Origin: an uncultured Candidatus Saccharibacteria bacterium
GTDB taxonomy: Bacteria > Patescibacteriota > Doudnabacteria > UBA920
Direction of reading: 5' to 3'
Assembly: GCA_964348935.1 (NCBI GenBank)
Contig: CAYGEJ010000002.1
Span: 3,540-67,539, forward strand
Length of the DNA stretch: 64,000 bases
Position numbers and translations under genes: made by a program. Shown here one piece after another: positions 31,361 through 59,748 of the stretch. Under the pieces are notes generated by a model. The model searched no databases and was not told the DNA's origin. It saw only the letters and a list, made by a program, of their open reading frames with translations. The stretch's first letter is position 1, and every line of letters starts with the position of its first letter.

Positions 31361-31372
31361 TAAATAAGCAAA

Positions 31373-32581: not shown

Positions 32582-32590
32582 AGCTTATTA

Positions 32591-35789: not shown

Positions 35790-35792
35790 AAA

Positions 35793-39548: not shown

Positions 39549-40151
39549 TTATTTGTTAATTGATTCCCATTTTGTCTGAGTAATTTTAATCCTTGGGTCG
39601 GAGACAATTAAATGCCAAATTACCCCTTGAAAACTTTCTGAATGAGGTGTAATTCTCTCGGCTGAAGCTTCTGGTACTAACACACACGCATTAGCCACTT
39701 CAGCTGTATAACCACCTTTCGGACCCACAACCCCCCCAATACTGCAACCAACTTCCTTTCCGTAAGTAAGTGCCTCAACTAAGTTAGCACTAACATTTTT
39801 TTCTTTATTTCCACCGCCGACAGAAAAAACAAATAACATATCATTTTTATTTAACCTGCTCCCTTTTAGCCATTCCACAAAAACTGTCGACCAACCCTCG
39901 TCGTTGGTTCTGGCAGTTAATTCAGAAACATTATCTGTCGGGGCATAAGCCTCAAAACCTGCAATCTTGCGAAAATCATTTACGGCATGCGAAGCATTAC
40001 CCGCACTCCCACCAACACCCAATATAAATAAACGGCCGTGCTGATCTCGAACTTTTGCCAATAATTCTATTAAATTGTCGATAGATTTTCTATCCAGTTG
40101 CTGTAATATATTCACCCCTTCATTCAAATATGTGTCTATAAAATTTTCCAT
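39549..40151 (-). CDS. gmhA: SIS-domain sedoheptulose-7-phosphate isomerase (GmhA-like)
   Basis: RLFILGVGGSAGNASHAVNDF and FVFSVGGGN SIS motifs, with a GmhA-like length of about 200 aa. Confidence 0.75.
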   Translation of the reverse strand: MENFIDTYLNEGVNILQQLDRKSIDNLIELLAKVRDQHGRLFILGVGGSAGNASHAVNDFRKIAGFEAYAPTDNVSELTARTNDEGWSTVFVEWLKGSRLNKNDMLFVFSVGGGNKEKNVSANLVEALTYGKEVGCSIGGVVGPKGGYTAEVANACVLVPEASAERITPHSESFQGVIWHLIVSDPRIKITQTKWESINK

Positions 40152-40156
40152 AAATA

Positions 40157-41185
40157 TTACTTAATTTGTATAATCTTACCACTTCGTGCCGAGCGGTACA
40201 AGGCTTCTAAAATTTTATTTACTTCCAAATTTTCTTTGGCATTTGCCAAAGGTTCTCTTTTTTCTAAAATAGAATTTCTAAACTCTTTCCACTCTTCTCT
40301 CCAAGAAATATCTTTTTCTTCAAAGTCAAAAATTTGTTCTTTAGGAACTTTACCAAACCCCACTTCAGTTCCTAATACTAAAGTTTCTTTACCATAACTT
40401 TTTCCAAGACCGTTAATAACCAAATAACCCAGGCTACCAAAAATTTCAAAACTAAATTTATTTTTCCATTGAGTTAAGCTTGAGTGAAAAGTTGCGACCT
40501 GTCCTTTTTTATTTGTAAGTTCGCAAAAAGCATTATCTTCCAAATTACTCTTTTTCCAATAGTAATTACGAGTTATGCCAAATGCTTTTGTAAAACCACC
40601 AATAAACCAATTAGCCAAATCTATAACGTGAACACCTTGGTCAAACAATTCACCGCCAACCGAGTACTTCTTTTGCATTCGCCATTCAGTATCGTATCCC
40701 GGCCTGGCACCATGGCCATAAACGGCTCGCAAATAAAATACCTTACCTATAGCCCCGGACTTCACCAACTCATACGCTTTAAATAAAGCGGGATGGTGTC
40801 GGTGATTAAAACCAACCTTGAGCACACGTTTATATTTTTTAGTTAATCCAAATATTTTTTTCGCTTCATGACTACTTTTTCCAAGTGGCTTTTCTGCTAA
40901 AACATCCTTACCATTTTTTAATGCTTCCGCAACTATTTTAACATTTACATCTGTTGGCGTAGCCACAATTATTACATCTATTAAAGGATCTTTAATCATC
41001 TCTTGCCATGTAGAAAATATTTTTACATTTGTGTTAGTGGCTATCTTTCTGGCGTTTTCTAAATTAACGTCAAAAACACCCGTAACAATATCCCTACCTA
41101 ACTCTGTTATAGCCAGAGCTCTTTTATTGCCAATATTTCCAGCGCCAATAATCCCGACTCTAAATTGTTTTTTATTATTCTTCAT
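40157..41185 (-). CDS. Gfo/Idh/MocA-family NAD(P)-dependent sugar oxidoreductase
   Basis: Rossmann VGIIGAGNIGNKRA and the EKP motif LAEKPL. Confidence 0.85.
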   Translation of the reverse strand: MKNNKKQFRVGIIGAGNIGNKRALAITELGRDIVTGVFDVNLENARKIATNTNVKIFSTWQEMIKDPLIDVIIVATPTDVNVKIVAEALKNGKDVLAEKPLGKSSHEAKKIFGLTKKYKRVLKVGFNHRHHPALFKAYELVKSGAIGKVFYLRAVYGHGARPGYDTEWRMQKKYSVGGELFDQGVHVIDLANWFIGGFTKAFGITRNYYWKKSNLEDNAFCELTNKKGQVATFHSSLTQWKNKFSFEIFGSLGYLVINGLGKSYGKETLVLGTEVGFGKVPKEQIFDFEEKDISWREEWKEFRNSILEKREPLANAKENLEVNKILEALYRSARSGKIIQIK

Positions 41186-41190
41186 AATAT

Positions 41191-42057
41191 TTACTTTGAG
41201 TGAAAATACTTATTATCAATCCTTCTAAGAGTAAATTCGGAATTTTTATTTAAATTTTCAACCCTCTCTTCATTCCACTCCTGCCAGTTATCCCATTTCG
41301 CTGAAATAACTTTACCGGTTAATTTTCCCGAACATAAACTCAAAACGAGTTCAGCAGCTAACTCGGCTGAGTCTCCTCCGCTCTTCTTTTGTTGTAATGA
41401 TTTTTCATAAAATTCTTTACCTACTTTTTTTACACCGGCTTTTAATACTTTATCTAGGAACAAAGTATTAATTGCTCCTGGAGCTATAGCATTCACTTGA
41501 ATATTTTGATCTTCGAATTCCTTAGCTAAATTTTCTGTAAACCTTACTACCGCTGCTTTAGAAGTCGCATAGCAAGAAAAATTTGGAAAAGGCTGAACAG
41601 CCCCACCACCGGAAAGATTAATTATTTTGCCACTCTTCTTCTTTAACATTAAAGGTAATACTGCGTTGCATGAATAAGCAGTACCAAGTAAGTTAATATT
41701 CATTGCCTCTGCCCATAAAACCATATCGTTTGTTTCAAACCTCCCAATTGGTCCATAAACCCCAGCACAGTTTACCAGCACATCTATTCTTTTATACTTT
41801 TTATAAATTTCACTATAAATTTTTTTTAAAGTATTAAATTTAGAAACATCAGCTTTATAAATTTCGCAATACCCCAATTTCTGAATTTCTTTTTGAGCTT
41901 CTTTAAGTTTATTTATCTGTCTGCCTAAAATAACAACAACTGCCCCAGCTTTACTAAAACTTTTTGCCACCATAAAACCAATTCCACTGGCTCCGCCTGT
42001 AACAATTACAACTTTTTTGGTAAAATTATAAGTCATATTTTCCAATCCCCGTTCCAA
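41191..42057 (-). CDS. Short-chain dehydrogenase/reductase (SDR)
   Basis: TGGASGIG; NCAG; YxxxK (YATSKAA). Confidence 0.85.
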   Translation of the reverse strand: MERGLENMTYNFTKKVVIVTGGASGIGFMVAKSFSKAGAVVVILGRQINKLKEAQKEIQKLGYCEIYKADVSKFNTLKKIYSEIYKKYKRIDVLVNCAGVYGPIGRFETNDMVLWAEAMNINLLGTAYSCNAVLPLMLKKKSGKIINLSGGGAVQPFPNFSCYATSKAAVVRFTENLAKEFEDQNIQVNAIAPGAINTLFLDKVLKAGVKKVGKEFYEKSLQQKKSGGDSAELAAELVLSLCSGKLTGKVISAKWDNWQEWNEERVENLNKNSEFTLRRIDNKYFHSK

Positions 42058-43327
42058 AATAGTTAAAATTTAATGATTCTAAGTCATTTTTAGATAAAAT
42101 ATTTTTGGTATCAAATATATTTAACTGCTTCAAATTTTTACTAATTTTATTATAATCCAAATTTTTAAATTCCGGCCATTCGGTAATTATTACAACAGCA
42201 TCAGCTCCCATACTTGCCTCATAAGGATCGCTAAATAATTTTACAGGCAAAACCAGTTTTGGGTTGTCTAGCGATGGATCGAAACCATTCACCACAGCGC
42301 CCTTTTTGGTTAGCCAATTTGCAATCTCCAAAGCTAAAGATCTGCGTAAAGTGTTGGTTCCTGGTTTGTAGACCAAACCAAACATGACGATTTTCTTTCC
42401 TTTTAAATTCTTAAGCTGTCCAATAATTTTTTTATAAAATACTTCTTTTCGATTTTGGTTAATTTTATAAATAACAGTAATAAGGGGTAAGCTAACTTTA
42501 TTTACTTGTGCCAAGCCTTCCAAAACCCTCAAATCCCGTCCCAAAGTCCCCCCGGCAAAACCTAAGCCCGGTGCCAAAAACGCCTTTTGACCTATTCGAG
42601 TATCGCTTTTCATTCCTTTAACCACATCTACAATATTTGCTCCCAATTTTTCACTTAAGTCAGAAATTTGATTTATAAAGCTTACGGACATTGCCAAAAA
42701 ACTATTCACTCCATGCTTCACAAATTCCGCACTTTCCAAAGACATAAATAAAATTGGATTTTTATAAAAACTATAAAAATCTCGCATTCTTTCTTCTGCA
42801 ACTTTTGAACTTACTCCAATAATTTGCCTGTCGGCATTTAAGTAAGTATCTATAGCCTGGCTGAGTCTTAAATTTTCCGGGTTATAAACTACTTCCAAAC
42901 CTTTAATTTTTTTCTTTAACTTATTAAAAATTTTCCTGGAAGTTCCGGCTGGAATCTGGCTCATAATTATTACCGTGGAATTTGTACTTGCGTACTTACC
43001 TATCGCTCTTACAGCTTTCTCAATTACAAATAAATTCGGCTTGTCGTTGTCTCCTACTGGAGTATCGTAACCAATTACAATAAACTGACTACCCTTGAGT
43101 TTGCTAAAGTCCGAAGTAAAACTCAATTGCTTGAGTTTTAGCATTGTTTGAGTAAGCTCTGTAAGCCCAGCTTCCTGTATGGGCAGAATTCCTTGCTGTA
43201 GTTTCTCAATATCTTTTTTATCAAAATCGAACCCTGTAACATTAAAGCCTGAACTTGCTAAACTGGCTGCGACACTACAACCCAAATGCCACAATCCAAT
43301 TACTGCAACATTTTTTTTATTTTCCAT
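42026..43327 (-). CDS. UDP-sugar 6-dehydrogenase (Ugd/WbpA/WecC family nucleotide-sugar dehydrogenase)
   Basis: VAVIGLWHLGCSVAAS NAD-binding motif, GLGFAGGTLGRD catalytic-Cys region, and about 433 aa. Confidence 0.85.
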   Translation of the reverse strand: MENKKNVAVIGLWHLGCSVAASLASSGFNVTGFDFDKKDIEKLQQGILPIQEAGLTELTQTMLKLKQLSFTSDFSKLKGSQFIVIGYDTPVGDNDKPNLFVIEKAVRAIGKYASTNSTVIIMSQIPAGTSRKIFNKLKKKIKGLEVVYNPENLRLSQAIDTYLNADRQIIGVSSKVAEERMRDFYSFYKNPILFMSLESAEFVKHGVNSFLAMSVSFINQISDLSEKLGANIVDVVKGMKSDTRIGQKAFLAPGLGFAGGTLGRDLRVLEGLAQVNKVSLPLITVIYKINQNRKEVFYKKIIGQLKNLKGKKIVMFGLVYKPGTNTLRRSLALEIANWLTKKGAVVNGFDPSLDNPKLVLPVKLFSDPYEASMGADAVVIITEWPEFKNLDYNKISKNLKQLNIFDTKNILSKNDLESLNFNYFGTGIGKYDL

Positions 43328-44324
43328 TTGTGTGCTGATATAAATTTAACAAAACCTTACTTCCTTCAAAATCATAGTTAAACGGTAATTCGGTTAAGCC
43401 TTTTTCCGAAAGAACCCTTCTAAATTCTTTTCGATTATTGGGAACGAAAAATAAAAATAAACCGCCGCCGCCACTACCCATAATCTTACCTCCTTCAGCT
43501 CCATTTTGCATCGCCAAATCATAAACCTCATCCATCCAGGGATCGGAAATTTTTGCAGACATGGTTTTTTTAGCTTGCCAGTGTTTGTGCATTAACTTAC
43601 CAAAATTACTGCAATCCCCATTTTCAAATTCAGAAAGAATTTGCACTCCTATATTTTTTATTTCTAGCAAAGCCTTTTCTACCTGGCTTTCACTTATAGA
43701 AGCATTTTCACTCTGTTCCTTTAAAATATCTGTGGTGTCATGTTGCTTGTGGGTGTAAAAAAGCACACACTTATACTCGAGCTCTTCTATTAAGTCTGAA
43801 CTTATGTTTGCCTGTCTAGATTTAACCACACCGTCCCTGTCTATATTTAATACAGTAAACCCACCTAAAGAGGCTAAGTACTGGTCCTGTTTACCAATTG
43901 GTTTTTTTAAAGTTTCTAATTCTATTTTGCATGCTAAATCCGCCAACTCTTCCCGGGAAATAACATCTCTATTTAGTTCATACAAGGCTTTAAGTAACCC
44001 TATTAAATACGCAGACGAAGACCCCATTCCGGTTCCAGCAGGAAGGTCTGCAAAAGACGAAATCTCAATTTGGTCATTTATCCCAGCATGCCTTAAAGCT
44101 TCTCTGGCAAGTTCGTGCTTTAATTCCTCTAACTTAACAACAGTTTCAGATGTAGAATATTTTACTCTAATTAATTTATCTACAAGGGGTTTATTTAAGG
44201 CAACGTAAATATACTTATTAATGCTCGCACTAAAAATAAAACCGCCATGTTTTTTGTAAAAATTTGGTAAGTCTGTTCCTCCCCCGCCCAAAGGCATACG
44301 GAATGGTGTTCGTGTAATTATCAT
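43317..44324 (-). CDS. GHMP-family sugar kinase (D-glycero-alpha-D-manno-heptose 7-phosphate kinase HddA-like)
   Basis: MIITRTPFRMPLGGGGTDLPNFYKKHGG N-terminus and GHMP motif PAGTGMGSSSA. Confidence 0.7.
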   Translation of the reverse strand: MIITRTPFRMPLGGGGTDLPNFYKKHGGFIFSASINKYIYVALNKPLVDKLIRVKYSTSETVVKLEELKHELAREALRHAGINDQIEISSFADLPAGTGMGSSSAYLIGLLKALYELNRDVISREELADLACKIELETLKKPIGKQDQYLASLGGFTVLNIDRDGVVKSRQANISSDLIEELEYKCVLFYTHKQHDTTDILKEQSENASISESQVEKALLEIKNIGVQILSEFENGDCSNFGKLMHKHWQAKKTMSAKISDPWMDEVYDLAMQNGAEGGKIMGSGGGGLFLFFVPNNRKEFRRVLSEKGLTELPFNYDFEGSKVLLNLYQHTNGK

Positions 44325-45085
44325 TATTGTTTAAAATACTTATTAGCTTTTTCTAAACTTTCTAAATTATCTATACCAAATAGAGCTTCATGTGGCTCAA
44401 TTACATACCCTTTTAGTTTTTTTAAATTATTTAGCATTTCCGGAAAAACATGCTTGCCAAAATCGTAAAAGGTTTTTGCAGGAATATAGTTTAATACTTC
44501 TGGAGTTAACTTATAAATACCACCATTTACATAATTTATTTCCGGCTTATGCTGGGCTTCGTAAAAACCTACAACATTATTTTGTTCGTCTATTTCCACT
44601 ACACCTCCTGCAATTCCACTGTTTGCACTTTTTGTCCTGTCGAATAACAATAAACTTCCAACCTCGTCTTTTCCTAAAGTTTGTTTTATAAATTTACTAA
44701 AATCTAAATCAAATAAATTATCTCCATACACCACCAGGAACTCTTCATTATTTTTAAAATGATGTTCTACTTTTTTTAAACCGCCTGCGGTTCCTAATAT
44801 TTCCGGTTCATGGGAATATTCGATATTTACACCAAAATCACTACCGTCTCCAAAATAACTAGTAACTGCTTCTGGGAAATAATGTGTATTAATAACTAGC
44901 TCTGTAACTCCCGCATTTTTTAACTGGGTAATTGTTCGTTCTAAAATTTTCTTCCCCGCAACTTCCACCATAACTTTTGGCTGGCTTTCTGTTAACGGAC
45001 GAAGTCTGGTTCCAAGCCCAGCAGCCAATACAAAGGCTTTTCCGCCAAAGGCCGATCCCGCTTCGCGGGACATATTATTTACCAT
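44324..45085 (-). CDS. Sugar-1-phosphate nucleotidyltransferase (heptose-1-P guanylyltransferase HddC-like)
   Basis: AFVLAAGLGTRLRPLTESQPKVMV NTP-transferase motif; about 250 aa. Confidence 0.75.
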   Translation of the reverse strand: MVNNMSREAGSAFGGKAFVLAAGLGTRLRPLTESQPKVMVEVAGKKILERTITQLKNAGVTELVINTHYFPEAVTSYFGDGSDFGVNIEYSHEPEILGTAGGLKKVEHHFKNNEEFLVVYGDNLFDLDFSKFIKQTLGKDEVGSLLLFDRTKSANSGIAGGVVEIDEQNNVVGFYEAQHKPEINYVNGGIYKLTPEVLNYIPAKTFYDFGKHVFPEMLNNLKKLKGYVIEPHEALFGIDNLESLEKANKYFKQ

Positions 45086-45087
45086 AT

Positions 45088-46083
45088 TTATAATTTCTCC
45101 TTAACAACATATTTTTTTATATACTCAATACTTCCACCCATACCCTGCTCCAAACTAACTTTAGGCTTCCAACCTAAAGCACTGGCTTTGGTTATGTCTG
45201 CTAAATTCTCCTGCGCCTCTCCAACTTGGTCTGGCCTAAATTCTGGTTCAATATTACTTCCTAAAATATTTTTTATAGTTTGAAAAATATCCAAAATAGA
45301 AATATTTTTTCCTGTACCGAGGTTATAAATTTCGCCATTAGTACGATCATCGTTCATAGCCAAAATATGAAAATCGTTTAAATCGTCTACATGAATAAAA
45401 TCTCGGCGTTTACTGCCATTACCATAAATAATAGGACTTTCGCCTTTTAACATTTTTATTATAAAAGCGCTAAAAACTGGTGGAATACTACGTCGATAAT
45501 CTTGCCTTGGTCCGTAAACATTAAAATAGCGTAGCGCAGTGGTCTTGAGTCCGTAAAAACGTTCGAATGCCTCGCCAAAATATTTAGTTGCCATTTTACT
45601 CACTGCATAAAAAGTTTCCGGATGTTCGTCTGTTTCCGGTGTTGGTAAAATTTTACTACCCTCATATATTGCAGAAGTTTCAGCATAAATTACTTTACGC
45701 ACCTTTGCCTTAGCAGAGGCTAAAAATACATTTACAGTTCCAGTTACATTTATATCTGCCGTACCCAACGGGTCAGTTTGACAATCTGGAATGCTGTTTT
45801 TTGCAGCAAAATGAAAAACTGTATCTACCCCTTCAAATATCGGATAAATTTCCGGACTTCGAATATCTAACTGATGAAATTTAACCCCTGTTGGGATTTG
45901 CTCTTTGACTCCATAAGCTAAATTATCTATACCTATTACTTCGTACCCTTCCCCAATCAATCGATCTGCCAAATTACTTCCAATAAATCCAGCGACACCT
46001 GTAATTAAAACTTTTTTATTAGCCATATCTTTACAAAATTTTAACAAGTAATTGTACTGAATTTTACCATAAAAATGCCTCAA
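45088..46083 (-). CDS. NAD-dependent nucleotide-sugar epimerase/dehydratase (candidate GDP-heptose 4,6-dehydratase)
   Basis: VLITGVAGFIGSNLADRL, YxxxK in YAVSKMATKY, 331 aa; located within the heptose gene set. Confidence 0.8.
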   Translation of the reverse strand: MRHFYGKIQYNYLLKFCKDMANKKVLITGVAGFIGSNLADRLIGEGYEVIGIDNLAYGVKEQIPTGVKFHQLDIRSPEIYPIFEGVDTVFHFAAKNSIPDCQTDPLGTADINVTGTVNVFLASAKAKVRKVIYAETSAIYEGSKILPTPETDEHPETFYAVSKMATKYFGEAFERFYGLKTTALRYFNVYGPRQDYRRSIPPVFSAFIIKMLKGESPIIYGNGSKRRDFIHVDDLNDFHILAMNDDRTNGEIYNLGTGKNISILDIFQTIKNILGSNIEPEFRPDQVGEAQENLADITKASALGWKPKVSLEQGMGGSIEYIKKYVVKEKL

Positions 46084-46096
46084 TAGGCAATAAAAA

Positions 46097-46636
46097 TTAA
46101 CTTAAATACTTAGGAATTTGCCCTAGAGATTCCACCTGAAAATCAAAGCCGGTAACTTCTATATTATATTTTGTCTTGACTAAAATACTTTTTATTCCAG
46201 CGTTCATGGCGCAGTCTATATCTTTCTGGCTATCACCCACCAAATAACTTTCTTCAAGATTTATCCCATAATCTTTTACTGCATCTAACACTAGTCCAAT
46301 TTTTGGTTTTCTACAATTACAATTATCCTTGTTGTCATGAGGGCAAACATAAATAGCGTTTATAGTTGGGATGTGTATTTTTAAAAAATCATGCATTTGG
46401 TTTAGTTCTTCCCATTCCATTTTGTTTCTTGCAATATCTGGTTGGTTGGTAATAATAATATTTAAAAAACCCAAAACTTTGGTTTTTGCAAGCACCTCTG
46501 CAACACCCTCAAATAAGTTAAAATCCTGATATTTTAATGGCGAGACATTTTGTTGGCCATCTTGCCTAAGAGCAACAACATGGTTTAAAACTCCGTCCCT
46601 GTCCCAAAATATCGCTTTGTTGTTAAGTTGTGTCAT
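46097..46636 (-). CDS. gmhB: D,D-heptose 1,7-bisphosphate phosphatase GmhB (HAD-IIIA)
   Basis: IFWDRDGVLN HAD motif I; Cys cluster CPHDNKDNCNCRKP; GDS motif III. Confidence 0.8.
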   Translation of the reverse strand: MTQLNNKAIFWDRDGVLNHVVALRQDGQQNVSPLKYQDFNLFEGVAEVLAKTKVLGFLNIIITNQPDIARNKMEWEELNQMHDFLKIHIPTINAIYVCPHDNKDNCNCRKPKIGLVLDAVKDYGINLEESYLVGDSQKDIDCAMNAGIKSILVKTKYNIEVTGFDFQVESLGQIPKYLS

Positions 46637-50028: not shown

Positions 50029-50161
50029 ATTTACGCCTAAAATAATGATTTTCTTGAATTAGTATACAATTTTCTACCCTTTTTGTCTATATCTAAAAAC
50101 TCTAGACAAAAGCTCTATTTCTAAGTACAATATTAGGTCATCTCAAAAGGAGGATGATACC

Positions 50162-50776
50162 ATGAGTGACCAAGGAATTGGATTAACCCCCGCTGAGCAA
50201 AACCAGCTCATCTATCTCCTAGGCAGATTGCAGCAACCGTGGCCTCGGGAAGTTTACAATGCCTTCGCAAGCATCATCTGCTTCACCGCAATTGAGGTGG
50301 CGCTGTTGCGGATGCACGAGGGGCGCCTGCAAATCCTGCTTACCGAAAGAACTGGTGACGAATTCTACGCCGGGAAGTTTCATTCCCCCGGAAGCATGCT
50401 TCGGGCCACTGACGTAGTGAAAACTGACGGGCTCGACCCTTCGGCTTGCACCTACGAAAATGCGATTAAAAGGGTGCTGGTGCAAGACTTGGGATTCCCA
50501 GAAATGATGGTTGAAGAGGATTGGACAATGTATTTTAACTCCCTCCCTCTGGCCATCCCTGGCTTCCCCTACAACACTCCCCGGGGACCGGAAAACTGCC
50601 TGCTGATAATTGGCGAACTTGCTGAAGTTCCGGCACAGGGAGCTTATGTCGACATTGAAAAAGTACTCAACAATCCAGTGGACTTTTTTATGATCCCCCA
50701 CAACCTCCTAGTCATCCGGCGGGCGAAATGGGCATTTAACCTACTCTACCAACTTCGGAATATTGAAGGGTGGTAA
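50162..50776 (+). CDS. GC-rich (apparently acquired) gene: Nudix-fold protein with a degenerate Nudix box
   Basis: GC is far higher than the flanks. The Nudix-fold alignment is VALLRMHEGRLQILLTER...AGKFHSPGSML...YENAIKRVLVQDLGF, with RE..EE replaced by KR..QD. It has its own SD (AAAGGAGGA) and a GC-rich terminator. Confidence 0.55.
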   Translation: MSDQGIGLTPAEQNQLIYLLGRLQQPWPREVYNAFASIICFTAIEVALLRMHEGRLQILLTERTGDEFYAGKFHSPGSMLRATDVVKTDGLDPSACTYENAIKRVLVQDLGFPEMMVEEDWTMYFNSLPLAIPGFPYNTPRGPENCLLIIGELAEVPAQGAYVDIEKVLNNPVDFFMIPHNLLVIRRAKWAFNLLYQLRNIEGW

Positions 50777-50787
50777 ACTCAAACAAC

Positions 50788-50826
50788 ACCGCCGCGACTC
50801 AACACGAGACGCGGCGGTAATTTTTT
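50788..50826 (+). terminator. GC-rich rho-independent terminator
   Basis: accgccgcg ... cgcggcggt followed by TTTTTT. Confidence 0.6.
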
Positions 50827-50830
50827 ATAT

Positions 50831-51664: not shown

Positions 51665-53218
51665 TTATGAAATTCTTAAAAACTTAAACACAAAAGACTT
51701 CAATATTGTTGAATCTTCCTTATTCATAAAACCAAAAATATAATACAGACCAAAGTACAGTACTATAGATAGCGGACCTATAACAATAAGCGTCCATACC
51801 GAATTCACCAGATCGACTAAGGCAAAGTGAATAACTAATGCGTCTATAATCGCAGTAAAAATTAACTTAGCGTACAAGATTAAGTAGTCGTTTAATCTCC
51901 CAGACAAAACAAATAAATTTTTCTCAATCCAATAAAAAGCATAGCTCATGGGGAGCACAGAAATAAAATAAGCCCAAGCCGCGCCCATAATCCCAAACCT
52001 TGGCACAAAAATAATCAACAAAATAAAATTTACTACCGCCATAAATATTGACTGCTTGATTAAAAATTTTACTTTCCCCAAACCAAGTAGCAATCCCTGC
52101 AGTGGCATGTATAGAGCGATTAAAAAATAAGTCAGTGTTAACACTATTAATACCTTAGCACCACGATCTGCATACTCTTGGCCAAGCCAAAAAAATAATA
52201 TTTTTTCGCCAAATAACATAATGGAGACAGTTACCGCAGCTGAAATTACGTGCAAATTCCTAAACGCTCTAATATAAATATTCTTCAACTTTTCCTTATC
52301 CCCTGCCCCGGAAAATTCACTCGCCATAGGAAAAAGCATTTGTCCGAAAGTGTTAGTAACAACAGACGTCTTCATTGCCACATTCCCAGGCACACTATAA
52401 AACGGTAACTGTGCCGGCCCCAAAAATATTGGAATTAATAATCTATCCAAAAAAATTAAACTACTAGAAGCGAGATTGGCCGCAAAAGCTAAAAAACCAA
52501 ATTTATATGCTTTTACTAATTCGGACTTAACAAATGTAAAATTTAATTTTAATTCAGGCATTATCTTTCTTACAAAATAATGAAAAAATATTAAAGTTAC
52601 CAATGCCAACAAAGCATTTAAAACCATTAATGCTTTTAACCTGTAATGCATTTCTAACAATACAATACTGCCAATACTACTTACAGCTAAACTAGCTAGA
52701 TTTAATTTGGTTAACAAATCAAATCTTTGAAGAGCAGTTAATACTGCACCATAAACTGTACTTAAACTAGTAAACAAAAAAGTAATCCCTGCAAATAAAA
52801 AAACAATAAAAATATGATTTACACTAGTAAAGCCAATATTAAATAACGGTAAAAACCATTTTCCTAAAACAAAAAAAATCATTAAGCCTAATAGCCCGGT
52901 TATTAAGAATAATAGCCTCGCAGAACTTAATAAATCTTTTAAACCTTCAATATTACCACTACCTTTATATTCAGATGCAAACTTGGTTACTGCAGTACTT
53001 AAACCCAAGTCAACATAATTAATAAATGAGCTTATTGCGTTAATTAAAATTAAAATCCCATACTCACTGGCGCCAAGTTTTATTACCATCATCCTGGTCA
53101 ACAAGATAGTAAAAACCATTGGCAATAAAAAGTTGGCAAACAAAAATACTGAATTTCTTAAAGTTTTATATGATAGTGAGCTTTCTTCCATTAATTTATT
53201 CCTTATAATTTTGTTCAA
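51665..53218 (-). CDS. MOP-superfamily polysaccharide flippase (Wzx-like)
   Basis: About 14 TM helices, 517 aa, with the Polysacc_synt-type organisation. Confidence 0.7.
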   Translation of the reverse strand: MNKIIRNKLMEESSLSYKTLRNSVFLFANFLLPMVFTILLTRMMVIKLGASEYGILILINAISSFINYVDLGLSTAVTKFASEYKGSGNIEGLKDLLSSARLLFLITGLLGLMIFFVLGKWFLPLFNIGFTSVNHIFIVFLFAGITFLFTSLSTVYGAVLTALQRFDLLTKLNLASLAVSSIGSIVLLEMHYRLKALMVLNALLALVTLIFFHYFVRKIMPELKLNFTFVKSELVKAYKFGFLAFAANLASSSLIFLDRLLIPIFLGPAQLPFYSVPGNVAMKTSVVTNTFGQMLFPMASEFSGAGDKEKLKNIYIRAFRNLHVISAAVTVSIMLFGEKILFFWLGQEYADRGAKVLIVLTLTYFLIALYMPLQGLLLGLGKVKFLIKQSIFMAVVNFILLIIFVPRFGIMGAAWAYFISVLPMSYAFYWIEKNLFVLSGRLNDYLILYAKLIFTAIIDALVIHFALVDLVNSVWTLIVIGPLSIVLYFGLYYIFGFMNKEDSTILKSFVFKFLRIS

Positions 53219-53954
53219 AATTTTTCAGTTCGTCAGGTGTCCCAATTATCCACCGGGTTAAAACTGATGCAATTTTAATGTGTTTGCCTGCTACAATTAG
53301 TTCGTTATAACACGGACCAACATAAAATTCATTATTATAGGTTTTGTTGCCGGCAAATTGGGTTTCCGCTGCTTGCACGTAGTCCGAGCCTTTTTTAAAA
53401 TAGTACATACCAATCGTCGCCAAATTGGATATTGCCTGTTTTTCTGCCACCTCTACCACATTTCCACCACTATCAACTTTCGCATAACTATAGCTTGGGT
53501 TAGTTGCTTCAAAGCAAGGAATAACCCCATCTGGGTCTTCTTTAACAATTATATCCCAAATATTGCTGGTCATATAAGTATCGCAATTGTAAATAAACAG
53601 CTTACTGTCGTTGTCTATGTACTGCTTGGCAAGCATACACGATTTACTTTGACCATTTAAAACCCCAGTCGCAGGAATAACTATAGTCTGTTCTCCAAAC
53701 AGTGCTTTGAGCTTAACGTCTATTTGATACTTTTCTATATGTTCATGCAAAACCACAAAAATCAATCTGTAATTCTGAATTTTATCTAAAAAATTAAAAG
53801 ACTTCATTGCCCACTCCACCATAGTCTTTCCCAATACCGGTATTAAAGGTTTTGGATCTATAAACCCTGCCTGAACAAACCTAGAACCCATTCCGGCCAT
53901 TGGAATTAAAATATTCACCTGTGCTTGATTTTCTGAATAAAATTTTGAGTCCAC
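53196..53954 (-). CDS. NTP-transferase-fold protein (putative (cyclitol/alcohol/sugar)-phosphate cytidylyl- or nucleotidyltransferase)
   Basis: ILIPMAGMGSRF...KPLIPVLGKTMVEW glycine-rich nucleotide-binding N-terminus, as in IspD/LicC/NTP_transf_3. Confidence 0.5.
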   Translation of the reverse strand: MDSKFYSENQAQVNILIPMAGMGSRFVQAGFIDPKPLIPVLGKTMVEWAMKSFNFLDKIQNYRLIFVVLHEHIEKYQIDVKLKALFGEQTIVIPATGVLNGQSKSCMLAKQYIDNDSKLFIYNCDTYMTSNIWDIIVKEDPDGVIPCFEATNPSYSYAKVDSGGNVVEVAEKQAISNLATIGMYYFKKGSDYVQAAETQFAGNKTYNNEFYVGPCYNELIVAGKHIKIASVLTRWIIGTPDELKNFEQNYKE

Positions 53955-54116
53955 ATGCTTCCTTTTCTCATACCTAAGTATGGCTTAAAAACAAACCCTC
54001 AATTAGGTTAATTATTCAAAGTTATTGTAGCATTTTTTCCACCCAAACAACAATATTTAAAGCTTTAAATTAAATTGACACTGAGCCTTAAAAATAGGTA
54101 TGATACCTAAAATAAT

Positions 54117-55097
54117 ATGCATATGGAAGTCACTAAACTAAAGGGCGGAAGTCTTAGCGGAACCTATTTATACCAGGAAAAAAATGCTTCCTTTATTCGA
54201 AAAAAGGTGTCTTTAAACGAAAATAGAGAATTTGGTTTTTATCGCTGGTTTTCACAATTGAAAAAACTCCAGTCTCTAGGACGAGAGTTCCCAAATCTAT
54301 TTCCAAGGGTAACCAACATTGGTACCGAAGAAAATACAGCATTTTATGATATGGAGTATATTGCCAATGCTCTTACTGGTTTTGAATTCTTAACAAGCAA
54401 TAGACCCCAAACAGAAGTTGATATTTTTTTTCAAAAACTGATCACAGCTATGGAGTCTATTCATAGTATAAAAATTCCTTCTTTTAAAGGTGGATTGGAT
54501 TTATATTTAGACCAAGAAGTTAGACAAGCTATTGAACTTTGCAAATCCGAGCCATTTTTTTCATCATTCTTGGAATATAAAACCATTTTTTTTAACGGCA
54601 AAGAAACCAAGCCACTACTAGCAAATTTAGATAAATTTTATTTACTTGCTAACAAATATTACACAAAACCTGAAGAATGTTTAACCCACGGAAACATTAC
54701 TTTAGAAAATATTCTTTATATTCCCGAATCCCAACGGATAGTATTCATTGATCTTTACCAAGAAAATTATGTAGATACAATATACAATGAATATTCTCAA
54801 ATTTTACAAAGCTCAAATAGCTACTATGAAGTCTACAATTCCAATTCCGCCCAAGCTGAAATTCAAGAAAATAAAGTACAAATTCATGCGGATAGAATTC
54901 CAAATCTAGATTACTTTAATACCCTATTCAATAACTATTTAAACTCCAAACTGTCACCTGAGGAATACAAACTGACAAAACTCTACGAAGTGACTCAGTT
55001 TACCAGACTGCTCCCTTTTAAGAAAGTTGTCGCCAAAGATAAAATGATTTTCTTTTACGCCCTAGCTTCTAATTTACTCGAGACAATTTCAGAATAA
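54117..55097 (+). CDS. APH/choline-kinase-like phosphotransferase
   Basis: Brenner-like catalytic loop LTHGNITLENILY and IVFIDLY (the DFG-equivalent). Confidence 0.5.
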   Translation: MHMEVTKLKGGSLSGTYLYQEKNASFIRKKVSLNENREFGFYRWFSQLKKLQSLGREFPNLFPRVTNIGTEENTAFYDMEYIANALTGFEFLTSNRPQTEVDIFFQKLITAMESIHSIKIPSFKGGLDLYLDQEVRQAIELCKSEPFFSSFLEYKTIFFNGKETKPLLANLDKFYLLANKYYTKPEECLTHGNITLENILYIPESQRIVFIDLYQENYVDTIYNEYSQILQSSNSYYEVYNSNSAQAEIQENKVQIHADRIPNLDYFNTLFNNYLNSKLSPEEYKLTKLYEVTQFTRLLPFKKVVAKDKMIFFYALASNLLETISE

Positions 55098-55104
55098 ACA
55101 TTTT

Positions 55105-56253
55105 ATGGATTTTATCCCAATTATAACCTCTAAACAAAAATGGACTGTGGAAGCCAAACTCCCCACAACTTTTTTTGTGCAGTTCTCTAATAATTTATTT
55201 GAACCTGAAAATAAAGATTTACTAAGCACTGGAAAAACAGGTAAAGGTGCGAGAAGGCTTATGGTAATTGACGAAAATGTTTATCTACATCATGGAAAAA
55301 AAATAGAAAACTATTTTTCACAAAATGGTATTACCCACAGTACCCTCTTGCTAAAATCCGAAGAAATTAAGAAAGACTGGGAAACCACTATTCAAATTTT
55401 ACATGCAATGGAAAACTTTAAATTGGAACGCACTGGCGAACCAGTAATTGCCATAGGTGGTGGAATTCTTTTAGACTTAGCCGGATTTGCCGCAAACTTA
55501 TACAGACGTGGCGTACCATACATTCGAGTACCAACAACCCTACTTGCTTTAGTGGATGCCAGTGTTGGTGTAAAAACAGGGATAAACCATTTTGGCAGAC
55601 GCAACAGACTCGGCTCTTACTATGCCCCGGTAGGAAGTTTTTTGGATTCATCTTTTTTAACAACTCTACCCGAAAAAGATTTAAGTAACGGTTGTGGTGA
55701 AATTTTAAAAATGGCAGTAATTAAAGATGCTAGCTTATTTTCCCTTCTTGAAAATTTTGGCAAAAAACTAATTGAAAATAAATTTCAGCCGAGCATCGAA
55801 AGCACAGAAGTTATTTACCGCTCCATTCAAGGTATGATTGAAGAACTAGAACCCAACCTTTGGGAAACAGATATGCGTAGGTTGGTAAATTTTGGCCATT
55901 CTTTTAGCCCTATGGTGGAAATGAACGCTCTACCAGAACTTTCACATGGTGAGGCTGTTGCTCTAGATGTTTTATTTTCCAGTATTATTTCGGTAGAACG
56001 CGGACTTATGCGTTTGGACGAAGTCTACAGAATTTATGAAACTATGAAATCTTTAGGACTACCCACCTATCATGAATTATTTAAAAACCAACAAATTCTA
56101 GAAGAAAGTCTAGCGGACACAATACGCCACCGTAATGGGGCTCAAGAGTTACCAATCCCGGTTTCCATTGGTCGTGCCATTTTTATAAACGATATAAACG
56201 CACAAGAAATTAAGAACGCAGCTGAAATAATGAGAAATAAGTTTACTATATGA
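55105..56253 (+). CDS. 3-dehydroquinate-synthase-like sugar-phosphate cyclase
   Basis: GGGILLDLAGFAA, RVPTTLLALVDASVGVKTGINHFGRRNRLGSYYAP and the metal-binding SHGEAVALD. Confidence 0.8.
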   Translation: MDFIPIITSKQKWTVEAKLPTTFFVQFSNNLFEPENKDLLSTGKTGKGARRLMVIDENVYLHHGKKIENYFSQNGITHSTLLLKSEEIKKDWETTIQILHAMENFKLERTGEPVIAIGGGILLDLAGFAANLYRRGVPYIRVPTTLLALVDASVGVKTGINHFGRRNRLGSYYAPVGSFLDSSFLTTLPEKDLSNGCGEILKMAVIKDASLFSLLENFGKKLIENKFQPSIESTEVIYRSIQGMIEELEPNLWETDMRRLVNFGHSFSPMVEMNALPELSHGEAVALDVLFSSIISVERGLMRLDEVYRIYETMKSLGLPTYHELFKNQQILEESLADTIRHRNGAQELPIPVSIGRAIFINDINAQEIKNAAEIMRNKFTI

Positions 56254-57335
56254 GCAAAGATTACTTGGCTAAACCGTCCAATCTAGATACGCATTACAAA
56301 GCACTTTCTTTGCGTTACCAAAATGCCCCATTTAGAGTTTGTGGAAAGAGTGGTTTAAAGCTTCCTCCTCTCTCACTTGGCTTATGGCAAAATTTTAGTG
56401 ACGTTGATCCATACTATAATTCCCGGGAAATGATTCTTGGTAGTTTTGATTTAGGTATTACGCATTTTGATTTGGGTAACAACTACGGCAAACCACCTGG
56501 CTCCGCTGAAAAAACCTTAGGAAGAATTCTAAAAGAAGACTTAGGTAGATATAGAGACGAATTAATAATTTCCACTAAAGCCGGTTACGATATGTGGCAA
56601 GGACCATACGGAGAAAATGGTTCTAAAAAGCATATTATGGCAAGTATAGACCAAAGCCTTACTAGACTTGGACTTGATTACGTAGATATTTTTTACTCTC
56701 ATAAATTTGACAAAAACACACCACTTGAAGAAACTATGGAAGCATTGGCTCAGATTATAAAAACAGGTAAAGCACTTTATGTTGGAATTTCCTCATATGG
56801 ACCCGAGGAAACTAAACAGGCTTTTAAAATTTTAAACTCCTTTGGAGTCAGAAATATAATTGCCCATCAAGCCTCTTATTCCCTACTAAACCGCTGGGTG
56901 GAAGAAGGACTTCTAGAAACTTTAGAAGAATTAGGAATTGGCTGCGTGGCCTTTAGCTCTTTAGCCCAAGGGTTATTAAGCAACAAGTATACTAGTGGAA
57001 TTATTCCTGAAGTTTCCAGAATGTCTAACAAAGAAACTTTACTAGAGAAAAAAATATTAAACCCCGAAGTCTTAACCGCCTTAAATGGACTGGCAAAAAT
57101 AGCGAAAAACCGTAACCAAACTCTGTCTCAAATGGCCTTGGCTTGGGTGTTAAGAAACAAGGTTGTAAGCTCAACTGTAATTGGAGCTAGGAGTCTAGAA
57201 CAAATCAAAGAAAATTTGGGCAGTTTAAATAATTTAAGTTTTTCCGAAGCGGAACTAAACCAAATAGACCAATTTGCAAAAAACATTCCCGGAGTAAACC
57301 TCTGGCCACCCAACTGCCAAACATCCGAAGTGTAA
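56250..57335 (+). CDS. Aldo/keto reductase (Tas/YghZ-like)
   Basis: The AKR catalytic tetrad context (D..Y..K..H) within LGITHFDLGNNYG...; 361 aa. Confidence 0.85.
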   Translation: MSKDYLAKPSNLDTHYKALSLRYQNAPFRVCGKSGLKLPPLSLGLWQNFSDVDPYYNSREMILGSFDLGITHFDLGNNYGKPPGSAEKTLGRILKEDLGRYRDELIISTKAGYDMWQGPYGENGSKKHIMASIDQSLTRLGLDYVDIFYSHKFDKNTPLEETMEALAQIIKTGKALYVGISSYGPEETKQAFKILNSFGVRNIIAHQASYSLLNRWVEEGLLETLEELGIGCVAFSSLAQGLLSNKYTSGIIPEVSRMSNKETLLEKKILNPEVLTALNGLAKIAKNRNQTLSQMALAWVLRNKVVSSTVIGARSLEQIKENLGSLNNLSFSEAELNQIDQFAKNIPGVNLWPPNCQTSEV

Positions 57336-57342
57336 ACATTTT

Positions 57343-57380
57343 AAAAAACTTGTCCCAGTATATATTGGGGCAAGTTTTTT
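57343..57380 (+). terminator. Rho-independent terminator
   Basis: aaaaaacttgtccc...ggggcaagtttttt. Confidence 0.55.
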
Positions 57381-57482
57381 AGTATTGACCCAAGCCTAAT
57401 TTTAAGCTAAAATAATCAATCGTGGTCAAAGAACTTTTGCAGTAGATACCACGAAAGCCGTTACAACAAAACGGGAGGAACA

Positions 57483-58385
57483 ATGATCAAGACATCTGAA
57501 GTTAAAAAAATGCTGTCAGCAGTTCTTGCTTCGATGACTGTTTTGCGGGCTTACCAGCTCGGGGAACGGATCCTACCAGCAGAAGGAAGCGACATCAAAC
57601 CACTTGACCAGAGCCTATTAAGCCGGGCAGATCGTGAGAGTGGCGAGGTGGCAATGAAAATTTTGTCCAAACTCCCTCTCAAGTACGACATCAAACCCGA
57701 AGACACCAAAGGCCGAACAACTCCAGGCGCTCAGAATGTGGTGATGTATGACAATGCGGACGGCACTCGCCCGCTAGTCAACGGACTCAAAACCTCCACA
57801 GTCATTTTGGCCGTCTACGACCTCAAGAAAAAAAAGGTCGTATTTGTAATTATTGGCGAACCCATTTCCGGAGACATTTGGTATGGTGGAGACTCTACAC
57901 CACCAATGCGGTGCAATAAGTATAAAAGAGGTGATAAGCCAAAACCCATTCAGGTCAACCAACATCCTCTCGACGGCCAAGCTACGGTGTTCATTGACTA
58001 TGTCAACAAGATTGGCTTTGCCCGCAAAACCAAAGACGGATCGAGGCAGATCTTTAACGGCGAAGAAAGCAAGGAAATCTGGAATACCGTATACGATCTT
58101 GGTGTCAACATCCTTATGCCCGGTTCCAACGGCCAGCACCAAGCAATGGTTGCCAATGGAGGTGAAAAGACAGTCGCCGGCTTAACCCTTGCAATGGGTG
58201 GTCCTTGGGACGCTGCCGGAGTCTTCCTGGTTATTCTTGCAGGTGGCTACGCCCGGGCCTTCAAACGATCTGAGAATGGTTTTAGCGAGCAGGATCCGCT
58301 GGACCCCACGAGCTACGATATTGCCGTCTACGGCAACTGCAAAGAAGCGGTGGACAAATTCTGTTCCGCTTGTCGATTTGCATAA
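57483..58385 (+). CDS. GC-rich (apparently acquired) inositol-monophosphatase/FIG-superfamily phosphatase-like protein
   Basis: DNADGTRPLVNG matches the IMPase DPIDGT motif and GGPWDAAGVFLVILAGG matches WDxAAG. GC content is far above the flanks. Own SD GGGAGGA. Confidence 0.65.
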   Translation: MIKTSEVKKMLSAVLASMTVLRAYQLGERILPAEGSDIKPLDQSLLSRADRESGEVAMKILSKLPLKYDIKPEDTKGRTTPGAQNVVMYDNADGTRPLVNGLKTSTVILAVYDLKKKKVVFVIIGEPISGDIWYGGDSTPPMRCNKYKRGDKPKPIQVNQHPLDGQATVFIDYVNKIGFARKTKDGSRQIFNGEESKEIWNTVYDLGVNILMPGSNGQHQAMVANGGEKTVAGLTLAMGGPWDAAGVFLVILAGGYARAFKRSENGFSEQDPLDPTSYDIAVYGNCKEAVDKFCSACRFA

Positions 58386-58393
58386 CACAACCC

Positions 58394-58448
58394 GAACAGG
58401 TAAATCTGAGCGCTAAAGACGCCAGAGATACCTGTTCTTATTTTTTTT
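58394..58448. terminator. Bidirectional terminator between convergent genes
   Basis: gaacaggta ... tacctgttc followed by tta-TTTTTTTT. Confidence 0.4.
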
Positions 58449-59748
58449 GTTTCTTATTTAAAACAACAGCAATACCCTTTTTTATATCTCGTTCAAAAGC
58501 ATCTAAAGTAAATTTACTAAAACATACTTCAACAGATTTTTTTGCTCTCTCGGAAAGCCATTGCCCTGACTGGGTAGAGACAAACTTTACAGCTTGTTTA
58601 ACATTCTCTAAATTAATTTCTGAAATTACATAGGCACCATCTTCTTCTGGCATATTACAGCCGGTACTGACCACTGGAATTAAACCATACTGTACACAGT
58701 CCAATACCCCACCGGGAATACTTTCAGAAACCGAAGGCTGAATAATAAACCCGCACTTTTCTATAATATCATAAAACTTTTTTGAACGTTGTTTTAAGTA
58801 ACCTATTTCATGAATATTTTTTTGTTCGTCTAACTTTAACGTCTGACGAATGAGTGGATGCACCTCACAGCACAAATACAAATGGTTTTCGGTTCCAATA
58901 AAACTTTCTATTACTAAATCTAAACCTTTTCTTATATTGTCTCGCCCACCACCAAAAAATAAAAAATGTTTTTTTGCTTTTTCAAGTGCTTCGGGACTTA
59001 AATCTTTTTTATACTTAGTGTCTAAACAAATACCTGTTGTGGTATTGAAATCTGGAACAAAAGGCTGCACAAAAGACTTAGACATTAAATCTCCTATTAC
59101 TAACATTCCATCTGCTTTTTTAATACAAGCATCCTCTCTTTCAGCCTCCGCCTGAGTTTTCATAAAATAATTTAAGTCTTTTTCAGGAAGTTCTACTCCA
59201 TGTCGCTGCTTAAAAGCTAAAAGTCTTTCATTAACTCCTTTATCTACCACTCGCCAATAGGCTACAACTGCAAAAAATATATATAAAGTTTCTTTGGTTA
59301 AATACTTTTGCAGACTTTCGTAATTATAAAAACCTGGAGCAAATATTAAATCGTATTTTTCTTTAGTTTGATAATCACAGTTATCGAGTTTAATTGCATC
59401 TACAACATAACCCATTTCATTTAAAGCCTTGGCTAAACTTAAAATTACTCCGTTATTACTAAAATAATATTTTAGGTTTCCAATATAATACTCCTTATAA
59501 AAAGGACCTATCATATAATTTAGTAAAGCTCTTTTTGGATTTTTAATACCTTTTGGTAAATACTTATCATAACCTATTATTACGTTGTAGTTACCATTAA
59601 AAATATAACTCTTGGCCACATAATATAGAGCTGTGATACCACCAATAAGTTTATTTACTAAAATATTAATACTTTCAACAATGGTTAAATCTGCAGATTT
59701 GAATAACCATGCGAGTCTTCCCCACTTTCCTAAAAATTTATCAGCCAT
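58438..59748 (-). CDS. Putative GT-B (GT4-like) glycosyltransferase
   Basis: C-terminal SESIPGGVLDCVQYGLIPVVS resembles the GT4 E..G...E....G.P.V motif. Confidence 0.45.
   Translation of the reverse strand: MADKFLGKWGRLAWLFKSADLTIVESINILVNKLIGGITALYYVAKSYIFNGNYNVIIGYDKYLPKGIKNPKRALLNYMIGPFYKEYYIGNLKYYFSNNGVILSLAKALNEMGYVVDAIKLDNCDYQTKEKYDLIFAPGFYNYESLQKYLTKETLYIFFAVVAYWRVVDKGVNERLLAFKQRHGVELPEKDLNYFMKTQAEAEREDACIKKADGMLVIGDLMSKSFVQPFVPDFNTTTGICLDTKYKKDLSPEALEKAKKHFLFFGGGRDNIRKGLDLVIESFIGTENHLYLCCEVHPLIRQTLKLDEQKNIHEIGYLKQRSKKFYDIIEKCGFIIQPSVSESIPGGVLDCVQYGLIPVVSTGCNMPEEDGAYVISEINLENVKQAVKFVSTQSGQWLSERAKKSVEVCFSKFTLDAFERDIKKGIAVVLNKKQKK

Follow-up and report, generated by a model that had tools for sequence, protein, structure and literature searches.

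The 64,000-nt stretch of DNA analyzed here, referred to as the window, covers positions 3,540 to 67,539 of contig CAYGEJ010000002.1 (assembly GCA_964348935.1), assigned to an uncultured Candidatus Saccharibacteria bacterium. It carries a GC-rich gene, here called the IMPase-like gene, for a divergent protein with the predicted fold of the inositol monophosphatase (IMPase) superfamily. The reading that we favor with moderate confidence is that its product is a catalytically competent, Mg2+-dependent IMPase-fold phosphomonoesterase, expressed from its own transcription unit and serving as the phosphatase step before nucleoside diphosphate (NDP) activation, and that its GC-richness is mainly a trait of its clade and not the sign of a recent one-off import. 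The phosphatase activity, the substrate class, the coupling to a neighboring transferase, and the cause of the GC offset are what we infer within this reading. A preliminary description of the same DNA had regarded the gene as a foreign island that completes a cyclitol-like module; the label "foreign island" proved to be only partly warranted, and the link to cyclitols is plausible but facultative.

The coding sequence is intact and is the sole long open reading frame (ORF) of positions 57400-58399, over which the sliding GC content was 0.47-0.52, compared with 0.31-0.39 on either side. Its overall GC content is 0.497 (0.555, 0.405, and 0.532 at the first, second, and third codon positions, respectively), and the 16 surrounding genes of native composition have 0.29-0.38, with 0.21-0.34 at third positions (GC3). 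With the 69 window ORFs having a median GC of 0.346, the gene is 4.3 robust standard deviations high. As had been described, it forms a GC-rich island on the plus strand with its own Shine-Dalgarno (SD) sequence, GGGAGGA, and terminator hairpin (58394-58448), and analysis of GC content and codon usage showed that its composition is anomalous at synonymous sites also (+0.094) and does not match that of the host.

Several simple explanations for this composition were rejected. An assembly chimera was ruled out by recurrence, as 3 contigs carry the identical protein in the same context and 2 of these derive from different runs (ERR3094302 and ERR3094292). Strand orientation is not the cause, since the co-oriented genes of the upstream operon, coding for a membrane protein (TM), a cyclase of the 2-epi-5-epi-valiolone synthase (EEVS) type, and an aldo-keto reductase (AKR), have a GC content of only 0.32-0.38. 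A normal gene made to look rich by a low-GC glycan cluster was rejected because the median given above is that of the whole 64 kb, the type IV pilus core genes of the window have 0.355-0.366, and the offset of the partner transferase described below is zero. A structured RNA or riboswitch was considered for both the GC-richness and the 147-nt leader; a scan against Rfam gave nothing at E ≤ 1 except a chance snoRNA match elsewhere, and upon folding of the transcript the terminator was the sole structure. An antisense ORF (57774-58142, minus strand), whose position is not conserved in the related locus L008, was taken as a by-product of the GC-richness.

Only four relatives, with identities of 48-56%, were returned when 5.8 billion proteins were searched by word index. 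A profile made from the window protein and these four was searched against 1.84 billion cluster representatives and matched 274 of them at E ≤ 1e-3, including 94 at E ≤ 1e-30, mostly about 290-310 amino acids long. Judged by these sequence searches, the clade is small and uncharacterized and stands apart from the mainstream IMPase families, which are very large. A set of 22 dereplicated loci, designated by L numbers (proteins and their contigs by P numbers), was assembled from exact-protein look-ups, one Ca. Falkowbacteria metagenome-assembled genome (MAG), and 24 metagenome contigs. One clade member resides in the Ca. Falkowbacteria MAG, and at least one host is therefore a Patescibacterium. 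Contig names that point to groundwater samples from 0.1-um filters also speak for a Patescibacterial affiliation. The hosts are low-GC to mid-GC uncultured bacteria, and the genes are situated in cell-surface glycan loci.

The GC offset was measured in the 16 loci with usable flanks, and each host's own codon table was used for splitting it into its components. The IMPase-like gene was GC-richer than its neighbors in all 16 loci (+0.024 to +0.215, mean +0.10; sign test, p = 3e-5) and was the single GC outlier in most of them. Amino-acid composition accounted for +0.063 of the mean excess and the choice of synonymous codons for +0.038; in the window gene, the corresponding shares of an excess of +0.150 over the host genes were +0.056 and +0.094. 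The partner transferase, in contrast, showed an offset of zero (−0.002 in GC and +0.003 in GC3). When plotted against host GC, the two genes had an equal slope of 0.61 with intercepts about 0.11 apart, and the IMPase-like gene was the richer in 12 of 12 loci (Wilcoxon, p = 0.0005). For a host of 34.7% GC, the regression, in which the window itself was part of the fit, predicts a GC content of 0.495, compared with the observed 0.497. A canonical IMPase paralogue present in L010 was not elevated in GC.

Four-fold-degenerate sites were near saturation even for the closest pairs, with identities of 0.29-0.64. In L005 the convergent glycosyltransferase is 81% identical to that of the window and the microsynteny is conserved, and the four-fold sites of the IMPase-like genes are only 0.41 identical, indicating that the gene is no recent arrival there. 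The hosts of the window and L003 are also related, as shown by PilB (78% identity) and the synteny of PilM-PilC-PilB-Bac_transf-GT2 (window 30269-36530; L003 1315-9012); their core genes are 0.16-0.18 apart in GC content, and their IMPase-like genes 0.10 apart. L003 lies on a 372-kb MAG contig whose glycan gene content diverges completely from that of the window after the shared synteny, and its IMPase-like gene adjoins a RuBisCO-large-like gene.

With the same offset in 16 of 16 loci, a partner gene of zero offset, and saturated four-fold sites, the GC contrast cannot be read as evidence of a recent import. The former claim of a foreign, acquired gene thus holds for the anomalous composition but not for an import specific to this genome. 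The GC-richness seems to be mainly a clade-wide maintained trait, composed of amino-acid composition and synonymous bias and often accompanied by a strong SD sequence. Symmetric gene exchange among relatives was rejected as its source, since exchange of this kind cannot give an offset that is positive in every locus. Expression-linked selection behind the offset fits the gene's own promoter, SD sequence, and terminator and the C-ending bias of several loci. C-ending codons were strongly enriched in the window, L003, L014, L022, and L029, whereas L008, L009, and L025 showed no such strong enrichment, so that the data do not establish translational selection as the source of the offset. The offset may alternatively stem from repeated replacement out of a hidden GC-rich reservoir.

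Assignment of the protein to the IMPase superfamily, already proposed in the preliminary description, was supported by fold, profile, and motifs. A model predicted by AlphaFold on a 93-sequence alignment had a pLDDT of 96.1 and a pTM of 0.93. Foldseek gave 176 PDB matches to this model at E ≤ 1e-3, the best 50 of which all belong to the superfamily (IMPase, SuhB, HisN, CysQ, and FBPase/IMPase); the top matches were Aquifex aq_1983, SuhB, plant and mycobacterial HisN, and human IMPA1/2, with TM-scores of 0.68-0.75 and identities of 14-19%. End-to-end alignment of the family profile with E. coli SuhB (E = 1.1e-25) brought the Glu, the DPxDGT stretch, and the WD of the two into register. According to the model, the window protein is a member of this superfamily with a five-layer alpha-beta-alpha-beta-alpha sandwich. 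Searched as a single sequence with phmmer against the PDB, it gave a best E of 0.007, and its score against Pfam PF00459 (Inositol_P) was 23.6 bits, the gathering threshold being 27; the Falkowbacteria homologue scored 87.6 bits, and homologues P0002-P0005 carry precomputed PF00459 matches.

All metal-binding and catalytic residues (E73, D90, D93, T95, and D243) are kept, among a set of key residues comprising K39, D42, D50, E73, D90, D93, G94, T95, S215-N216-G217, and W242-D243. The upstream metal-binding Glu of the superfamily is E70 in the human enzyme and E67 in SuhB, and E73 matches the leading Glu of the GEE/TEE stretch in 4N81 and SuhB. E73, D90, D93, and G94 were invariant over 75 family members, E73 was nearly invariant across 93 sequences, and T95 was invariant in a 21-sequence set; K39, D42, D50, T106, N216, and D243 were invariant or nearly so in the clade, D243 being in register with the WD of SuhB. 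The motifs DPxDGT and WDxAAG named earlier are preserved in their functional residues and not to the letter. The first reads Y-D90-N-A-D93-G94-T95 (DNADGT), the Pro being replaced by Asn, and the second W242-D243-A-A-G, with the x position deleted. Canonical DPLDGT and EE.G are found in most of the clade, and DN[AIL]DGT with P-E-D is confined to the subclade of the window. From its residues and modeled fold, the protein looks catalytically competent, and the gene itself most likely codes for an ordinary metal-dependent phosphatase. It is a new, uncharacterized, and very divergent member of a known superfamily.

It is very improbable that the protein is a housekeeping member of the superfamily, namely a SuhB-type IMPase/Nus factor, HisN, a CysQ 3'-phosphoadenosine 5'-phosphate phosphatase, or FBPase. 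SuhB/IMPase gave the nearest sequence and structure matches and HisN (TIGR02067) was the best match among the NCBIfam models. However, the HisN score was 25.8 bits, far from the equivalog cutoff of 275.15, and no other NCBIfam equivalog model matched; close similarity to SuhB/IMPase proper (EC 3.1.3.25) was not found either, identity to any solved IMPase or other solved structure being 19% at most. Furthermore, a clade this small that occurs only in glycan loci does not have the distribution of a housekeeping gene, and in L010 the canonical IMPase paralogue coexists with the IMPase-like gene.

The gene is flanked by expression signals of its own (Table 1). A terminator-like inverted repeat appears to close the TM-EEVS-AKR operon and to set the phosphatase gene apart, and a promoter-like sequence lies between this repeat and the gene; the latter is a consensus match only, and shuffled sequence yields such matches at least as often. 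On account of these two elements, the IMPase-like gene is most likely a monocistronic transcription unit, as judged from the sequence, and the earlier idea that it had been recruited into the native-composition operon was not borne out. The downstream terminator, present in both the minimum free energy (MFE) and centroid folds, overlaps the 3' end of a convergent glycosyltransferase-like gene (58438-59748, minus strand). Apart from the two terminators, no direct or inverted repeats were found at the gene borders, nor were tRNA or mobility genes; no viral relatives were detected among 2.9 million viral contigs, and there was no PHROG match. A mobile-element origin was rejected on these grounds.

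Most of the 69 window genes lack a recognizable SD sequence, the median anti-SD duplex being about 0 kcal/mol, and only 8 of them form a duplex of −6 kcal/mol or stronger. Each of the three GC-rich window genes has a GGAGG SD sequence, and their duplexes are all among the four strongest, so that a strong SD is found in 3 of 3 GC-rich genes vs 5 of 66 others (hypergeometric p ~ 0.001). SD sequences unusually strong for the locus were also observed in family members L008, L010, L022, and L027, suggesting that the strong SD is partly a family trait.

The commonest conserved neighbor of the clade is a sugar-1-phosphate nucleotidylyltransferase, of which two types occur. It is no more than three genes away in 14 of the 22 loci, four genes away in the window, and near the IMPase-like gene in 13 of 16 loci with adequate flanks, usually placed directly upstream and divergent or directly downstream and convergent. 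In most loci the IMPase-like gene is a lone gene on the strand opposite to its neighbors. Further recurrent neighbors are SDR epimerases, SIS isomerases, GHMP/FGGY kinases, HAD phosphatases (5 loci), WavE, GDPD-family phosphodiesterase homologues (4 loci), and a GatZ/KbaZ-like protein. Over locus pairs, the divergence of the IMPase-like protein was broadly correlated with that of the adjacent transferase, with exceptions both ways; identities for IMPase-like protein and transferase, respectively, were 53 and 69%, 66 and 72%, 43 and 66%, and 81 and 85%. The window transferase is the probable functional partner of the IMPase-like gene. Clade transferases scored best against the models of RmlA, GlmU, and AglF, all far under the curated cutoffs, and that of L014 weakly matched the IPCT/DIPPS model NF041135.

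According to the mechanism proposed, the enzyme would remove one phosphate, in a metal-dependent manner, from a phosphorylated sugar or cyclitol intermediate, and the neighboring transferase would then make the NDP-activated glycan donor. The step would resemble that of GmhB or AcbJ, here with an enzyme of the IMPase fold, and in the window the candidate substrates would include products of the adjacent EEVS/AKR module. The main functional alternative, to which we assign a small probability, is a role after transfer similar to that of DIPP and PIP phosphatases, in which a CDP- or NDP-activated alcohol produced by the nucleotidylyltransferase would be coupled with a phosphorylated polyol or cyclitol before the IMPase-like enzyme takes off the terminal phosphate that is left. 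In the synthesis of di-myo-inositol phosphate, DIPP is dephosphorylated by an IMPase-family enzyme. The conserved position beside nucleotidylyltransferases, including the one with the NF041135 match, agrees with such a role, and the GDPD homologues and HAD phosphatases suggest phosphodiester-linked decorations. However, no CDP-alcohol phosphatidyltransferase or DIPPS-like gene was found among the conserved neighbors, and the best models for the transferases are those for sugar 1-phosphates.

The cyclitol-like module claimed in the preliminary description does, on sequence grounds, exist in the window. By a wide margin, the nearest solved relative of the cyclase was the 2-epi-5-epi-valiolone synthase ValA (4P53), with E = 1.7e-95, compared with 1.7e-61 for DDGS (5TPR) and about 1e-37 for true dehydroquinate synthase (DHQS). 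The membrane protein is homologous to proteins with the LPG_synthase_TM domain, and the nucleotidylyltransferase gene is transcribed divergently from the operon. The TM-EEVS-AKR module was also found in L021, L033, L034 (P0169 contig), L035, L036, and L037, and a nucleotidylyltransferase lies beside it in 5 of these 6 loci, i.e., wherever the contig reaches far enough. The part of the claim that made the phosphatase a component of the module did not stand, since among these six loci only L021 has the IMPase-like gene with the module, at a distance of about 5 kb. No IMPase-like gene was found within 10 kb of the module in L033 and the P0169 contig; in L037 the gene after AKR codes for an ABC-type membrane protein, and the IMPase-like gene is absent from the available flanks. 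At most, then, the phosphatase accompanies the EEVS module facultatively, and the general partner of the phosphatase is the transferase. The contigs of the close relatives L035, L036, and P0160 end in or just after the AKR gene. In L035 and L036 these ends (12087 and 5829, respectively) are where the window carries the IMPase-like gene, and they may reflect strain-level variability at the site. In the literature searched, we found no description of an EEVS-type module recurring in glycan loci and no paper linking IMPase-family enzymes or sedoheptulose-7-phosphate cyclases to such loci.

Two of the contigs were similar in length. L017 is on Ga0155055_126 (86139 bp) and L021 on Ga0075978_101 (86138 bp), from different samples, each with an IMPase-like gene, which adjoins a heptose-like module in L017 and is near the EEVS module in L021. 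They may represent one genome with two paralogues; the local GC content is 0.54 in L017 and 0.46 in L021.

Table 1. Features of the window and positions of the EEVS module in all loci that carry it
Feature	Position	Strand	Basis or remarks
Fatty-acid desaturase family protein	4174-4974	-	GC 0.483, GC3 0.528; GGAGG SD
Island 1, GC-rich ORFan	ORF 50162-50776 (region 50090-50830)	+	GC 0.514, GC3 0.585
Sugar-1-phosphate nucleotidylyltransferase	53196-53954	-	GC 0.366 (native); 35-40% identity to clade-adjacent transferases
Three-gene operon TM-EEVS-AKR	54117-57335	+	Homology; module conserved in six other loci
Membrane protein (TM)	54117-55097	+	Homology
DHQS-like, EEVS-type sedoheptulose-7-phosphate cyclase	55105-56253	+	ValA 4P53, E 1.7e-95
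Aldo-keto reductase (AKR)	56250-57335	+	Homology
Terminator-like inverted repeat with flanking A-run and T-run	57342-57381		20-nt adjacent arms, 90% complementary
Promoter-like TTGACC-17 nt-TAAAAT in AT-rich sequence	57385-57413	+	10/12 consensus matches
Shine-Dalgarno GGGAGGA, 3 nt ahead of ATG 57483	57473-57479	+	Anti-SD duplex −10.3 kcal/mol
Predicted divergent IMPase-fold phosphatase, 300 aa	57483-58385	+	ORF, profile, and predicted-fold evidence
Terminator hairpin, 9-bp outer stem GAACAGGTA/TACCTGTTC, then T-run	58394-58448		MFE and centroid folds
EEVS module, window	53196-57335		
EEVS module, L021	2066-5441		
EEVS module, L033	9023-12993		
EEVS module, L034	9027-12125		
EEVS module, L035	8167-12085		
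EEVS module, L036	1721-5803		
EEVS module, L037	3-2878		

From about position 34.4 kb to its end, downstream of the type IV pilus genes PilM, PilC, and PilB, the window is occupied by a single large surface-glycan locus. Besides an initiating Bac_transf transferase and glycosyltransferases of the GT2 and GT1 types, it codes for an acyltransferase, a methyltransferase, a DegT aminotransferase, and a flippase. A GDP-heptose-like module at 39549-46636 on the minus strand includes genes for an SIS isomerase, a GFO/IDH/MocA oxidoreductase, an SDR, a UDP-glucose/GDP-mannose dehydrogenase, a GHMP kinase, a nucleotidylyltransferase, an epimerase/dehydratase, and a GmhB-like HAD phosphatase (46097-46636). 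This module would draw on sedoheptulose 7-phosphate, as would the EEVS enzyme. Homologues of most of its genes adjoin the IMPase-like gene in L010, L017, and L027.

The first of the two other GC-rich genes, island 1, is 6.7 kb from the IMPase-like gene, close to the 6.6 kb estimated previously. No homologues of its product were found in 5.8 billion proteins, and there was no Pfam, NCBIfam, PHROG, or PDB match; a single-sequence AlphaFold model was uninformative (pLDDT 37.5), and folding of the transcript gave z = −1.6. Island 1 carries its own promoter-like site, AAGGAGGA SD sequence, and GC-rich terminator. In L035, which is otherwise syntenic (DegT 84% identical), only about 150 bp of intergenic sequence is present at this position, indicating that island 1 is an inserted, self-contained expression cassette. 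The second gene codes for the desaturase family protein. Its third positions are G- and T-rich, and those of the two plus-strand islands are C-rich, which suggests that the history of the desaturase gene differs from theirs.

Several of these results weigh against the reading favored above, and those on composition, SD sequences, and subclades also speak for its rival, namely a recent transfer of the gene from a donor with a GC content of about 50% and its recruitment as the phosphatase of the EEVS/AKR cyclitol pathway, an explanation that we regard as unlikely. The GC3 of the window gene is 0.53, vs 0.29 in host genes, and its synonymous excess is among the three largest of the family, most loci having about +0.02 to +0.045. 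The strong GGAGG sequences in a genome largely devoid of SD sequences are common to all three GC-rich genes, and the sister island 1 is demonstrably inserted relative to the close relative L035. The IMPase-like genes of the window (DNxDGT) and L021 belong to different subclades and their products are only 36% identical, vs 58-70% for the operon proteins of the two loci, and in L037 another gene occupies the place after AKR. The large synonymous excess, the SD sequences, and the low identity to the L021 copy fit some horizontal replacement in the lineage. The IMPase-like protein also evolves faster than the partner transferase, which argues against a highly expressed, strongly constrained gene as the simplest account of the offset. 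With respect to function, no kinase was found in the conserved EEVS module to provide a route to a cyclitol phosphate, and L010, L017, and L027 also hold their own GmhB-like HAD phosphatase, indicating that the IMPase-like enzyme is not simply a substitute for GmhB.

On the other side, the rival explanation has to contend with an offset that is found in every family locus whatever the host GC and is missing from the partner gene, with a window gene that agrees with the family regression, and with the L005 locus, in which the IMPase-like/glycosyltransferase microsynteny is kept with four-fold sites near saturation. No donor is known, the closest homologue among the 5.8 billion proteins being 56% identical; the borders lack mobility genes, flanking repeats, and tRNA, no viral relatives were found, and at least three loci have the EEVS module without the IMPase-like gene. 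A clade trait, with a possible later allelic replacement in the window lineage, is the reading retained here.

A more far-reaching version of this reading, to which we give little credence, is that the clade represents a selection-maintained class of GC-rich, SD-bearing, monocistronic genes of ultra-small bacteria, whose GC content is kept about 10 points (13 at third positions) higher than that of any host genome because of something in their expression or nucleic acid, and that together with the partner transferase it makes an NDP-activated C7-cyclitol or unusual sugar for a Patescibacterial surface glycan. If true, the NDP-cyclitol reading would provide the first carbasugar-containing cell-surface polymer. 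Known biology is not overturned by any of these results. They provide a worked example of a misleading GC contrast, in which an apparent foreign island is one member of a family whose genes are GC-rich in every locus, and such a family-wide offset means that compositional calls of horizontal gene transfer in low-GC, reduced genomes need a family-level control. They also point to an uncharacterized IMPase-fold clade of about 270 sequence clusters which, tied to nucleotidylyltransferases, would be an enzyme pair for new NDP-sugar or NDP-cyclitol chemistry, and document an EEVS-type cyclase module as recurrent in glycan loci of uncultured bacteria.

Comparison with known systems showed that SuhB (E. 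coli 6IB7 and 2QFL; P. aeruginosa 8WDQ) has the same fold as the model (Foldseek TM-score about 0.7), with the Glu, Asp-x-x-Asp-Gly-Thr, and Trp-Asp kept. The window protein is, however, only 14-19% identical to SuhB and about 30 residues longer; its subclade carries DN[AIL]DGT in place of DPxDGT and P-E-D in place of G-E-E, and WDxAAG lacks one residue. Two signatures, G-S-N-G and T-x-A-x-G-G-P-W-D, are the clade's own, and the clade is restricted to glycan loci beside nucleotidylyltransferases.

The dual FBPase/IMPases of Aquifex and archaea (aq_1983: 9MMI and 2PCR; AF2372: 1LBV) include the best structural match, 9MMI, with a TM-score of 0.74-0.75. These enzymes hydrolyze both sugar bisphosphates and inositol phosphates, the chemistry proposed for the window enzyme, but identity is about 18%, the genomic context is different, and the profile match to the archaeal enzymes (E about 1e-11) falls behind that to SuhB (1e-25).

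The closest functional analogues would be GmhB, acting on heptose 1,7-bisphosphate, and AcbJ/VldH of the C7-cyclitol pathways, phosphatases that trim a bisphosphate or a phosphorylated cyclitol ahead of a nucleotidylyltransferase or pseudoglycosyltransferase. They are likewise encoded in loci with kinases, isomerases, and transferases, but have the HAD fold, unrelated to that of IMPase, and the window already has a GmhB-like HAD of its own. The DIPP phosphatase with IPCT/DIPPS resembles the pair proposed here in that an IMPase-fold phosphatase is coupled, in its genes and its function, to a nucleotidylyltransferase, there one for a cyclitol phosphate, and the L014 transferase is the one with a weak match to that system. 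This is different from the clade described here, in which no DIPPS or CDP-alcohol transferase is a neighbor, the hosts are not hyperthermophiles, and the cyclase of the window is of the phosphate-eliminating EEVS type and not MIPS.

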